Part shown: in pieces, positions 1,635 to 10,555 of the stretch
Numbering within the stretch: position 1 is the first letter of the stretch
Layout of the letters: the number at the start of each line of letters is the position of its first letter
NCBI GenBank assembly: GCA_042216335.1
Contig: JBDGTY010000007.1
Location: 1 to 10,555, forward strand
Direction: 5' to 3'
Length of the DNA: 10,555 bases
Source: Candidatus Nanohalobium sp.
GTDB lineage: Archaea > Nanohalarchaeota > Nanosalinia > Nanosalinales > Nanosalinaceae
Position numbers and translations under genes: made by a program
Notes under the pieces: generated by a model
Told to the model about the DNA's origin: nothing
Seen by the model: the letters and a program-made list of their open reading frames with translations, nothing else
Databases searched by the model: none

Positions 1635-1802
1635 TCAGCAAAACTGGCATACCTCTTCTTTTTCGTCCGGCTTCTCCTCGTGCTCGTATGTTTCCTTGCA
1701 GTCCTCGCAGCAGAACTTCTTACCGTCCTCTTCCACTGCATCATCGCCTAATTCCTTTCCGCATACGTAGCATTCGTCGTCCGAACTTCCGAGTAGAGAC
1801 AT
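1635..1802 (-). CDS. Small Cys-rich TRASH/YHS-like metal-binding protein (55 aa) with an extra C-terminal CxxC
   Basis: MSLLGSSDDECYVCGKELGDDAVEEDGKKFCCEDCKETYEHEEKPDEKEEVCQFC shows the CxxCG...FCCxxC pattern of TRASH domains and an acidic composition like the neighbouring genes. The ATG at 1802 is preferred over the GTG at 1838 because a TATA box sits 25-30 nt upstream of it. Confidence 0.8.
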   Translation of the reverse strand: MSLLGSSDDECYVCGKELGDDAVEEDGKKFCCEDCKETYEHEEKPDEKEEVCQFC

Positions 1803-1825
1803 AGAACCGATTTCACATCGCCGCC

Positions 1826-1833
1826 ATTTAAAG
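1826..1833 (-). promoter_or_regulatory. Archaeal TATA box (CTTTAAAT) for the TRASH-like gene, probably giving a leaderless transcript
   Basis: TTTAAA lies at -30 to -25 relative to ATG 1802, inside the 39-nt intergenic gap. Confidence 0.6.
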
Positions 1834-1841
1834 CCCACGGC

Positions 1842-8305: not shown

Positions 8306-9361
8306 CTACTGGTTCACCTCCTTTCTGAGCTGCTCTTTCTCCTTCTGCAGTAGTTCTGGCATCTCATCGTAGACATAATCGAACAGTTCGTCGAAGCCTG
8401 GATCATCTGCATCTATAGCCTTCTCAGCTGCCTTATCTACTTTCTCCTCTGCTTCTTCCTCGAAGTTCTCGAGTTCGTCGTTCCAGATGCCGTGTTCCTT
8501 GAGGTACTCTCTGAAACGTTTGAGAGGATCTTTCTTCTTCCACTCATCGACCTCTTCCTCGTCCCTGTAACGTGTGGAGTCGTCGGAAGTCGTGTGATCC
8601 TCCAATCTGTAGGTCTCAGCCTCGATAAGCACTGGTTTGCCGTTCCTGGCCTTCTCCAGCGCTTCCTCGACCGCTTTGATGACTGCAAGTATATCGTTTC
8701 CGTCGACCTGTATACCCTCGATACCATGTGCAATGGCCTTCTGTGCGATAGTATCCGATTTTGTCTGTTTTTCACGTGGCATGGAGATCGCGTACTGATT
8801 ATTCTGCACGAAGAAGATCGAGTGTGCGCTGTATACTCCGGCAAAGTTCATGGCCTCGTGGAAGTCTCCCTGAGAAGTACTTCCGTCGCCGGTAAATCCC
8901 AGAACAGCGTTTTCATCGCCTTTCTTCTCCATCGCCATCCCTATCCCGGCGAGGTGCTGGTTCTGAGTCCCGACTGGGATCGCGACGGGCAACGTGTTCA
9001 GATCCTTCAGGCCTTTCTGGCCGTTGGCGTCGCCCATCCATCTCTGGAATATCTTGTCTAGCGGCGCGCCTCGTGCGATGAATGCTGCGGTCTCCCTGAA
9101 GCTGGGCACCATCCAGTCCTCGTCGTCCAGGGCAAACATCGCACCTATCTGACAGGCCTCCTGGCCCTTGTGCGGTGCGTAGGTGCTTATCTCACCTCTT
9201 CTCTGGAGGGAGAAAGCTTTTTCATCAAATTTCCTTGCGATTACCATCTGCCGGTAAAGCTCCCGGTACTCGTCCTCCTCCACCCAGGGAAAGTCCTCGT
9301 CATCATCAGTTCCCATAACCTCGATCCGCTGGATAGAGCCATTGTAGACTTCTTCGCGCAT
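8306..9361 (-). CDS. pdhA: 2-oxoacid (pyruvate) dehydrogenase E1 alpha subunit
   Basis: LQRRGEISTYAPHKGQEA, the ThDP-binding motif GDGSTSQGDFHE...NN, VDGND and YRLEDHTTSDD. Pyruvate versus branched-chain specificity cannot be fixed from sequence alone. Confidence 0.93.
   Translation of the reverse strand: MREEVYNGSIQRIEVMGTDDDEDFPWVEEDEYRELYRQMVIARKFDEKAFSLQRRGEISTYAPHKGQEACQIGAMFALDDEDWMVPSFRETAAFIARGAPLDKIFQRWMGDANGQKGLKDLNTLPVAIPVGTQNQHLAGIGMAMEKKGDENAVLGFTGDGSTSQGDFHEAMNFAGVYSAHSIFFVQNNQYAISMPREKQTKSDTIAQKAIAHGIEGIQVDGNDILAVIKAVEEALEKARNGKPVLIEAETYRLEDHTTSDDSTRYRDEEEVDEWKKKDPLKRFREYLKEHGIWNDELENFEEEAEEKVDKAAEKAIDADDPGFDELFDYVYDEMPELLQKEKEQLRKEVNQ
8314..8321 (-). promoter_or_regulatory. 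Shine-Dalgarno GGAGGTGA for pdhB, embedded in the 3' end of pdhA
   Basis: The minus strand reads GGAGGTGAACCAGTAG-ATG, a full archaeal SD consensus 8 nt before the pdhB start. Confidence 0.8.
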
Positions 9362-9387
9362 TATGTTTGAAACAGCTCAGGGCTCGC

Positions 9388-9394
9388 ATATAAA
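9388..9394 (-). promoter_or_regulatory. TATA box (TTTATAT) of the pdh operon
   Basis: It lies at -33 to -27 from ATG 9361, with purine-containing AAACGA just upstream (BRE-like). No SD precedes pdhA, consistent with a leaderless or near-leaderless mRNA. Confidence 0.65.
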
Positions 9395-9399
9395 GAATC

Positions 9400-9408
9400 G
9401 TTTGCGAC
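9400..9408 (+). repeat. 9-bp direct repeat GTTTGCGAC, left copy
   Basis: Exact match to 10000-10008. The two copies bracket the low-GC ORF. Confidence 0.7.
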
Positions 9409-9450
9409 TGAAGAGTGGACATTTTAGATTTAATGTTTTTATTAGGCTTT

Positions 9451-9996
9451 ATGGAAGATGAGGATGTCCTTTATATAGGTATGAAGGAGTTTGCCTATTT
9501 GGATCAGGAGATTGTTAACGAATTGGACTATAGGGCTATAGAGACTCCAGGAGTAGCTTCATGTTTCGGTGTAGGGTTTTACGATTCTGATTCTGGTGCT
9601 GTAGGCCTCATCCATGCTAACAGGAATAAGTTGGATCAGGTGAAAGAGGCTATTCATGTTTTTGATAGGGAGCTAGATGTAAAATTCGATAATATTGAGT
9701 TCTGGACAACTGAGCAAAGTTACAATAGAGAGATGGGTATGCAAGAAGGTTCGACTTGGAGAATAACAGAAGGAGGAAAATTGGTTGAAGAACTGTTATC
9801 ACAGAAGGCTAGAGCAGAGGTAAGAACTAATTTTGCTGATACCTCTGTTTCTATAGGAGTTGAATACGGTGAGGGAATATATCTGTCTGATGTAGAGACT
9901 GCGGAAAGGTTAGATGATCCGCTGGGAATAATCAATGAAGATACTAATGAGTCTGACAAGTTGGTAGTTGATATGATTCATGAATTAAGAAGTTAG
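9451..9996 (+). CDS. Orphan protein with a CheD/NTAN1/CNF1/YfiH-like cysteine hydrolase (deamidase) signature
   Basis: Acidic ORF, open from GTG 9415, with ATG 9451 (MEDEDVLYIG) judged the likelier start. Segment LYIGMKEFAY...IETPGVASCFGVGFYDSDSGAVGLIH gives T-x5-C-x16-H (Cys codon 9562-9564, His codon 9613-9615). The CDS itself is high confidence and the fold call is moderate. Confidence 0.65.
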   Translation: MEDEDVLYIGMKEFAYLDQEIVNELDYRAIETPGVASCFGVGFYDSDSGAVGLIHANRNKLDQVKEAIHVFDRELDVKFDNIEFWTTEQSYNREMGMQEGSTWRITEGGKLVEELLSQKARAEVRTNFADTSVSIGVEYGEGIYLSDVETAERLDDPLGIINEDTNESDKLVVDMIHELRS

Positions 9997-9999
9997 TGT

Positions 10000-10008
10000 G
10001 TTTGCGAC
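10000..10008 (+). repeat. 9-bp direct repeat GTTTGCGAC, right copy
   Basis: Exact match to 9400-9408, starting 4 nt after the ORF stop at 9996. Confidence 0.7.
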
Positions 10009-10028
10009 CTTCCGGTGAACTCAACAAC

Positions 10029-10036
10029 CTAAATAA
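10029..10036 (+). promoter_or_regulatory. Putative TATA box (CTAAATAA) for the acetate-CoA ligase gene
   Basis: TAAATA lies at -29 to -24 from GTG 10059. No SD is visible before the start. Confidence 0.45.
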
Positions 10037-10058
10037 CGAGTTTCTGAAAGTATCCCAC

Positions 10059-10555
10059 GTGACTCTGGACAAACTCTTCAAACCGGAGAAGGTGGCGGTG
10101 ATAGGAGCCTCAAGGGAGGAGGGTAAGACCGGCCACGAGATATTCGAGAACCTTCTGCATGGCTTTGAGGGCGAGGTCTATCCCGTCAACCCGAACGCAG
10201 ATGAAATCGAGGGGTTAGAAGCTCATGATGACGTACAGGATGGAACAGAACTAGTAGTCATAGCAGTCCCTGGAAAGATAGTTCCCAATGTTATAGAGGA
10301 TGCTGGGGAGAAGGGAGTTAAGGCCGCGATAGTTGTATCGGCAGGTTTCTCAGAAGCAGGAAATGAAGAACTTGAGGAAGAAGTCCTGAAAACTGCTGAG
10401 GAATACGGTATAGACCTTCTAGGCCCGAACGTACTCGGACTGATAAATACAGAGAACTCGATGAACGCCTCGTTCGCCTCGAAGATGCCGGAAGAAGGCA
10501 ATATCTCGTTCATGTCTCAGTCCGGGGCATTCTGCACAGCGATACTCGACTACGC
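10059..10555 (+). CDS. acdA: ADP-forming acetate-CoA ligase (acyl-CoA synthetase, NDP-forming), alpha / N-terminal CoA-binding part; 3' end outside window
   Basis: Absent from the ORF track. Manual translation from GTG 10059: MTLDKLFKPEKVAVIGASREEGKTGHEIFENLLHGFEGEVYPVNP...VIAVP...VVSAGFSEAG...LLGPNVLGLIN...MNASF...GNISFMSQSGAF. VAVIGAS, YPVNP, SAGFxE, GPN and SQSGA are ACD-alpha hallmarks. Confidence 0.92.
   Translation, partial: MTLDKLFKPEKVAVIGASREEGKTGHEIFENLLHGFEGEVYPVNPNADEIEGLEAHDDVQDGTELVVIAVPGKIVPNVIEDAGEKGVKAAIVVSAGFSEAGNEELEEEVLKTAEEYGIDLLGPNVLGLINTENSMNASFASKMPEEGNISFMSQSGAFCTAILDY

Follow-up and report, generated by a model that had tools for sequence, protein, structure and literature searches.

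The question raised by this locus is what a small acidic protein with the catalytic motif of the chemotaxis deamidase CheD does in a host-dependent salt-lake archaeon in whose genome no chemotaxis genes were found. The protein, here called P0001, is the product of the open reading frame (ORF) at 9451-9996 of a 10,555-nt stretch of contig JBDGTY010000007.1 (assembly GCA_042216335.1, Candidatus Nanohalobium sp.), the whole of which we refer to as the window. An earlier note on this DNA had read P0001 as a divergent protein Gln/Asn deamidase with the fold of CheD, NTAN1 and CNF1. That reading is supported by the register that P0001 shares with CheD, by its predicted fold and by a conserved Cys/His pair, and we consider it probable, if by no means assured, that the chemistry of P0001 is Cys38-dependent deamidation of a protein or peptide. 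The gene also has a feature that goes beyond what the earlier note expected: it forms a one-gene cassette in a hot spot that varies between strains.

The frame is intact and is translated from 9451 to 9993, with a TAG stop codon at 9994-9996. The translation begins MEDEDVLYIGMKEFAYLDQEIVNELDYRAIETPGVASCFGVGFYDSDSGAVGLIHANRNK, includes the stretch LYIGMKEFA and carries T32-x5-C38-x16-H55, exactly as had been described. The residues that the earlier note gave for known members of the fold were likewise correct: CheD uses T21/C27/H44 and NTAN1 S69/C75/H92 (PMC7022378, in part), and YfiH has the same Cys-to-His spacing in C107/H124, together with D89 and H71 (PMC8844914, in part). A bare T-x5-C-x16-H motif is in itself of little information; it is raised above chance here because family conservation, the alignment register with CheD and the fold search all agree. 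Starting from a GTG at 9415, the protein would be 12 residues longer (the 193-residue form), but the ATG at 9451 is the likelier start because the closest homologue, P0002, begins MDEDTLYIGM. Read directly from that ATG, the acidic N-terminus (MEDEDV...) holds no evident signal peptide, as previously stated, and P0001 is best explained as a soluble cytoplasmic protein. The A/T-rich TTTTAGATTTAATG upstream may be an archaeal TATA box, which would give a leaderless or short-leader transcript.

P0001 belongs to a small, unnamed family that is new within a known superfold. Homologues are very rare: an exhaustive scan of 1.84 billion cluster representatives returned 10 clusters at E <=1e-3, four at <=1e-10 and one at <=1e-30. 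Word-indexed and profile protein searches yielded no further member; the 'longer' and 'shorter' length classes lay outside the search, so fused forms may exist. In the alignment of P0001 with 10 relatives (A1; 11 sequences, 23-50 % identity to P0001), Cys38 and His55 are among the very few conserved columns. His55 is invariant, and the cysteine is present in all 10 rows that cover its column, the remaining row being P0007, an N-terminally shorter sequence. The conserved stretch reads LxVGQxEFAYLD...LETGG...C.GV....D.DSG..AL.HAD and is followed later by an LGV...GFY block. Only the C, H and F columns are invariant in a second set of divergent paralogues, and the Cys and His are also invariant among canonical CheDs. 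Full-length members were found with the A1 profile in only two further genomes (G052 and G064; 201 searched), where the neighbouring genes are a TFIIB and a nucleotidyl transferase. Two members, P0005 and P0010, have a common C-terminal extension of ~110-130 residues with no Pfam or Atlas match, and in several others an acidic extension of 40-95 residues lies at the N-terminus.

Established family profiles barely register the protein. Pfam gave no match to P0001 at E <=10, and thus none above the cut-offs of the CheD (PF03975), NTAN1 (PF14736) and YfiH/PgeF (PF02578) profiles, and the NCBIfam CheD profile aligned its positions 21-50 with residues 41-70 of the 193-residue form at 12.2 bits (cut-off 251; E 0.14). 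Sub-threshold matches across the 11 members fell on Pfam N_Asn_amidohyd (four members at 13-19.5 bits against a cut-off of 24, best E 5.8e-4, with none for P0001 itself), Cu-oxidase_4/YfiH (one member, E 2.3e-3), NCBIfam CheD (two members) and PgeF (one member, E 0.014). The profiles concerned coincide exactly with the families of a single structural superfold.

The sequence relation to CheD was analyzed against a canonical set of 13 genes from archaeal genomes related to that of the window, the profile of which matches Thermotoga maritima CheD (2f9z_C) at E 2.9e-53. Using hhalign, A1 aligned to this set with a probability of 90.5 % (E 1.3e-6) over its N-terminal 49 columns, in a register that places E12, T32, C38 and H55 of P0001 on E9, T21, C27 and H44 of CheD (numbering of 2f9z_C). 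The two proteins thus have in common the G-x-x-E of the first strand and the Thr-x5-Cys-x16-His arrangement, as well as a similar size (~155-165 residues for CheD, 181 for P0001), and homology of the N-terminal half is detectable from sequence. Unlike CheD (PF03975; PRK13490), P0001 has seven additional residues between its first strand and the strand bearing the Thr (helix 19-25 in the model), and it lacks the C-terminal motifs: AK..GGA, IG.RN and ED.GG..GR are invariant in the 13 canonical sequences and absent from P0001, and the CheD consensus stretches LVAKIAGGAxMF, IGxRNVEAV and EDxGG have no counterpart in it. The earlier observation that motifs of the AKxxGGA, IGxRN and DVGG type are missing from its C-terminal half is therefore borne out. 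A match of the C-terminal half of the single protein to the heme-binding protein 6eu8 (E 0.009) was rejected as chance, as no fold match backs it.

Intermediates between the two groups occur in related genomes. The 164-residue ORF L021 (G007:C3:48396-48887) matches canonical CheD over 135 residues (33 % identity, E 7.6e-13), P0002 at E 1.4e-7 and P0001 at E 5.8e-6, all E-values being from a small local database; judged from its sequence, it stands between canonical CheD and the P0001 family. L021 lies outside any che cluster, next to TrkA and an Ig-like-domain protein. In whole-genome searches, a mixed profile (A5) made from further divergent paralogues matches both canonical CheDs and P0001 (7.1e-6). 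The P0001 family appears to have diverged from archaeal CheD by keeping the N-terminal catalytic half and remodelling the C-terminal half; only ~50 columns can be aligned across the families. P0001 is not a degenerate copy within a che operon but a separate lineage. It falls outside ordinary CheD, given the lack of a Pfam CheD match and the 49-column extent of the hhalign match, and no che system was seen in its genome.

The predicted structure leads to the same relatives. An AlphaFold2 model built on A1 has a predicted local distance difference test score (pLDDT) of 77.3 and a predicted template modelling score (pTM) of 0.77. Foldseek against the PDB returned, in this order, NTAN1 (1.1e-6), CheD (1.2e-6), YfiH/DUF152 and CNF1/CNFy, with a probability of 1.00 in the top 10 rows. 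VIA-align gave Z 11.9 for NTAN1, aligned to NTAN1 residues 42-228, Z 11.6 for CheD, with a root-mean-square deviation of 2.6 Å over 122 of 154 residues and thus a likeness over the whole CheD chain, Z 7-9.2 for YlmD/YfiH, Z 5.7-6.3 for CNF1/CNFy and Z 5.5 for BLF1, against Z 4.0 or less for unrelated folds. The ESM Atlas model of P0001 has the same two nearest neighbours, with template modelling scores of 0.57/0.63 for CheD and 0.64/0.41 for NTAN1; Atlas feature matches to AvrXv3 and Imm19 (0.82-0.87) are below the 0.9 lead threshold. The model thus has the CheD/CNF1 sandwich that the earlier note expected, and we regard the predicted placement of P0001 in the superfold of CNF1/YfiH-like cysteine hydrolases, with CheD and NTAN1 as its nearest relatives, as solid. 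In the DSSP string, one β-hairpin has the conserved Cys at one end and the conserved His at the other: Cys38 comes immediately before strand 39-44, and His55 falls at the end of its partner, 51-56. From this placement the two side chains should face each other.

The window's genome (1.02 Mb, 74 contigs, 96.2 % complete, median ORF isoelectric point (pI) 4.7) gave no match to CheD (PF03975), CheW or CheC and none above cut-off to MCPsignal. No cheA, cheC, cheW or methyl-accepting chemotaxis protein (MCP) gene was found in it, so that the absence of che genes already noted for the window extends to the genome searches. Because no MCP or che gene was found, a chemoreceptor of its own organism can be set aside as the target of P0001. 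By contrast, the canonical CheDs of relatives stand in a cheA-cheC-cheD-MCP cluster in some related genomes. This agrees with PMC9765267, which, in the part available, reports che genes in two other nanohaloarchaeotal families and in none of 14 Nanosalinaceae representatives. Two such clusters, at L041 (G006:C4) and L043 (G025:C64), are in genomes that share the family code of the window's genome, and Pfam CheD is above cut-off in 4 of 49 same-family genomes; the family names are coded, so these counts do not establish a range extension.

A second, more distant CheD-like ORF with C-x16-H (GDGCSALAVYDQENEKAYLLHC), P0012, was observed elsewhere in the window's genome at G000:C37:5262-5795 on the plus strand (L048:1351-1887). 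A GVGGEY strand lies upstream in open frame and the first ATG, GTG or TTG is just four codons 5' of the Cys; P0012 may use a non-canonical start or be encoded by a truncated gene. P0012 adjoins a Cob_adeno_trans (PduO-type) gene, like related ORFs in G006 and G033, and A5 finds P0012-like ORFs plus canonical CheDs in 26 of 101 relatives. Its structure model is poor (pLDDT 49.4).

If P0001 is an enzyme, His55 would activate Cys38 with help from Thr32, and Cys38 would attack the amide group in the side chain of a protein or peptide Gln or Asn; ammonia would be released via a thioester intermediate, leaving Glu or Asp. Deamidation is favored because every characterized member of the fold with a hydroxyl-Cys-His set (CheD, NTAN1, BLF1) acts by deamidating the side chain of a Gln or Asn (PMC7022378, in part). 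Several points weigh against this proposal. Sequence likeness to CheD stops at column 49 of the hhalign alignment, and the family profiles A1 and A4 found no PDB sequence at E <=10. The model was built on just 11 sequences and is poor at residues 96-106 and 155-181, and the presumed Cys38-His55 contact comes from the DSSP hairpin together with the alignment. Nor is every enzyme of this fold a protein deamidase (YfiH/PgeF and YlmD are not), and CheD itself has a non-catalytic, receptor-binding role (PMC3513319, in part). Finally, no conserved gene neighborhood that would hint at a pathway was found in the two other genomes with full-length members.

Alternatively, P0001 could be a same-fold cysteine hydrolase acting on a non-protein amide or similar bond, for example in small-molecule or cell-envelope precursor editing, either like YfiH/PgeF (a nucleotide-sugar-amino-acid conjugate) or like YlmD/FAMIN (purine nucleosides). 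YfiH/PgeF and YlmD (Cu-oxidase_4, DUF152) share the superfold and the Cys-x16-His spacing (C107/H124 in the part of PMC8844914 available), their structures score Z 7-9.2, and single family members show the weak Cu-oxidase_4 and PgeF matches mentioned above. However, these scores are below those of CheD and NTAN1, it is CheD with which hhalign finds the residues in register, and P0001 has the Thr used by CheD and BLF1, whereas there is no histidine in residues 1-37 of its translation and hence no counterpart upstream of Cys38 to His71 of YfiH. P0001 is also 60-90 residues shorter than YfiH-type chains (240-272 residues). We therefore find a small-molecule substrate rather unlikely. Somewhat less credible still is that P0001 converts protein N-terminal Asn or Gln to Asp or Glu in the manner of NTAN1 (human 6A0E; PF14736), its top structural match by both VIA-align and Foldseek, with which it shares Cys-x16-His and a hydroxyl residue six positions before the Cys. 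The divergent paralogue L023 (3.7e-4) adds to the four family members with a sub-threshold N_Asn_amidohyd match, but every one of these matches is under the 24-bit cut-off. NTAN1 is a eukaryotic protein ~125 residues longer than the archaeal P0001, whose alignment with it ends at NTAN1 residue 228, with nothing matching the appended C-terminal region, the lid that reads a free N-terminus. According to the available part of PMC7022378, recognition of the free N-terminus needs this region (Ser254, Thr255, Glu260, residues 205-271), and Thr255 and Glu260 bind the free α-amino group. A further consideration is the setting of such an activity. To our knowledge, no N-degron pathway exists in archaea.

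P0001 might also be a non-catalytic binding or regulatory protein, or a transient passenger gene without selected function. The receptor-binding role of CheD beside its catalysis (PMC3513319, in part) provides a precedent for the former, and the gene is rare, strain-specific and compositionally foreign; the five differences seen in the X1 contig (2 synonymous, 3 conservative replacements) are too few to show selection. Yet the frame is intact both in the window and in the X1 contig, and Cys and His are kept down to 23 % identity and across divergent paralogue sets, which would be unexpected in a pseudo-enzyme or a decaying gene, and we give this possibility little weight. Deamidation of a protein or peptide by Cys38 accordingly stays the reading that we prefer. 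The roles that the earlier note offered for it (effector, defense factor, acidification of proteins) are speculative, and proteome-wide acidification does not fit as its purpose because the gene is missing from the three same-genus genomes searched.

The genomic setting of the P0001 gene shows an insertion polymorphism. The gene is placed between the divergent promoters of two metabolic genes, those of a 2-oxoacid dehydrogenase E1alpha and of an ADP-forming acetyl-CoA synthetase-like (ACS-like) protein (Table 1). In a 1252-nt contig of run X2, from another study, that differs from the window at 93 positions (~93 % identity), position 9399 is joined straight to 10000, with nine shared letters. 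The extra DNA is bordered by a perfect 9-bp direct repeat, GTTTGCGAC, which occurs twice in the window, exactly at both borders; chance would give 0.06 matches, and a count of 2 was reached in 1 of 200 shuffles. P0001 has no match in three of three same-genus genomes, and its gene is missing from all 15 named nanohaloarchaeal E1alpha loci, some of which are the same genomes as G001, G002 and G004; the records nearest to the E1alpha of the window's genome carry the names Candidatus Nanohaloarchaea and Nanosalina. Because the site is empty in a close relative and in most outgroups, the filled site is the derived state. The gene has a GC content of 0.394 and a GC content at third codon positions of 0.337, against means of 0.501 and 0.583 for the 738 ORFs of at least 150 residues; with a composition z of about -2.5 it is among the 21 lowest of these. 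The best reading is that P0001 is a strain-specific accessory gene, horizontally acquired in a recent single-gene insertion.

Table 1. Coordinates of the P0001 gene, its predicted active-site codons, the inserted segment and other features of the window.
Feature	Position	Strand	Remarks
ORF P0001, predicted CheD/NTAN1-fold cysteine amidohydrolase	9451..9996	+	181 codons plus TAG; pI 4.2
Glu12 codon, first strand (IGMKEF)	9484..9486	+	aligned to CheD Glu9 of GIGEY
Thr32 codon, predicted third triad member	9544..9546	+	aligned to CheD Thr21
Cys38 codon, predicted nucleophile	9562..9564	+	aligned to CheD Cys27
His55 codon, predicted general base	9613..9615	+	family-invariant; aligned to CheD His44
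A/T-rich TTTTAGATTTAATG, possible TATA box	9422..9435	+	~16-29 nt 5' of ATG 9451, within inserted segment; direct reading
Extra segment of 600 bp	9400..9999		skipped by the related strain's contig; GC 0.39 vs 0.50 in the genome's ORFs
Left copy of perfect 9-bp direct repeat GTTTGCGAC	9400..9408	+	
Right copy of 9-bp direct repeat	10000..10008	+	runs on into conserved intergenic CTTCCGGTGAACTCAACAACCTAAATAAC of relatives
2-oxoacid dehydrogenase E1alpha, left neighbor	8306..9361	-	first gene of E1a-E1b-E2-E3 operon; transcribed away from P0001
CoA-binding N-terminus of ACS-like protein, right neighbor	10059..10553	+	runs off the window
ORF of 296 residues with N-terminal hydrophobic segment	729..1619	-	by P-type ATPase gene; no Pfam match at 1e-5
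Cys-rich ORF of 67 residues (CxxC...CxxC...C)	1635..1838	-	by P-type ATPase gene; no Pfam match at 1e-5

In nanohaloarchaeal genomes, the spacer between E1alpha and the ACS-like gene is a hot spot for insertions that vary from strain to strain. Across the 15 loci it measures 87-106 nt in ten, 178-183 nt in two, and 511 and 879 nt in two more, one locus having no ACS within 2.5 kb of E1alpha; in the window it is 697 nt (9362-10058). The short spacers read ...TATATAAAAAATC GTTTGCGAC CTCTCGGTGAACTCAACAACCTAAATAAC..., and other strains carry unrelated cargo in the same ~20-bp stretch, including a 255-residue methyltransferase, a 115-residue ORF without a Pfam match and further insertions. The methyltransferase accounts for the 879-nt spacer, and the further insertions are ~80-410 nt; all spacer inserts inspected (L044-L047, L050-L065) start no more than ~20 bp past the conserved GTTTGCGAC. 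The left repeat is followed by the 12 bases TGAAGAGTGGAC, which are closer to the site as it stands in another strain than to the resident site: compared by eye, they agree with TCTAGAGTGAAC of L051 in 9 positions of 12 and with the resident CTTCCGGTGAAC in 5 of 12. Neither terminal inverted repeats at the insert ends nor a second insert copy was found in the genome, and the insert has no recombinase; an origin as a miniature inverted-repeat transposable element or insertion sequence is unsupported, given that the inverted repeats and a second copy are missing. The gene probably came in on a 600-bp segment that holds this one gene and a putative promoter of its own, and the segment would have landed at a permissive site between two divergent promoters. 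Integration by recombination at the short core is a reasonable guess as to the mechanism, and a hot spot would also arise via selection for the sole place that spares both promoters.

A bolder combination of these elements can be envisaged, in which P0001 is a leaderless Gln/Asn deamidase serving as a symbiosis effector, passed from the nanohaloarchaeal ectosymbiont to its haloarchaeal host via cell-cell contact, and its gene circulates as an att-site cassette. A host protein would then be switched by deamidation, much as CNF1 and BLF1 act in eukaryotic cells and CheD on receptors. The 600-bp cassette would move between symbiont strains with a recombinase supplied in trans, the 9-bp core within a ~21-bp conserved intergenic element serving as the att-like site. 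That P0001 acts as an effector on the haloarchaeal host is conceivable, and the joint scenario as a whole strikes us as a long shot. The glutamine deamidase toxins CNF1/CNFy (catalytic domain) and BLF1 share the superfold and, according to the available part of PMC7022378, the Cys-His chemistry with P0001. They are nevertheless much weaker structural matches than CheD and NTAN1, no sequence likeness to them was detected, and P0001 has no delivery or receptor-binding domains.

Neither did our searches of viral contigs, phages, plasmids and defense systems link P0001 to a halovirus, phage, plasmid or defense system. Searching for relatives via A3, none of 36 pattern matches in viral contigs and none of 43 in metagenome contigs was confirmed, and tblastn of phages and plasmids gave no match. 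PHROGs returned nothing, and PADLOC returned just a CARF-model match (12 bits, E 0.012), which we took as noise. In BFVD, no halovirus protein was found, only CheD-fold proteins of giant viruses, the nearest having 250-306 residues (Tupanvirus, Moumouvirus 'CheD chemotaxis protein', Fadolivirus, ChoanoV1), so that Nucleocytoviricota, too, have proteins of the CheD/NTAN1 fold. A weak A4 match elsewhere in the genome (G000:C35:2235-2579) was dropped as spurious, as it covers the acidic C-terminal half only and has neither Cys nor His.

Deamidases of the CheD fold are known from three settings: they serve in chemotaxis, act as N-degron enzymes of eukaryotes or are toxins of bacteria. The P0001 family adds a fourth, in which the catalytic half of CheD is kept in host-dependent organisms with ~1 Mb genomes, here without a chemotaxis system. 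If active, P0001 would bring a protein-deamidation activity to a DPANN symbiont and would represent a natural intermediate in the recruitment of CheD-type enzymes to new substrates. The insertion polymorphism, for its part, marks a hot spot of single-gene exchange among nanohaloarchaeal strains, useful for studying gene flow in organisms that are not yet genetically tractable, and, should the effector and cassette scenario prove true, a DPANN archaeon would have a flexible, integron-like locus here.

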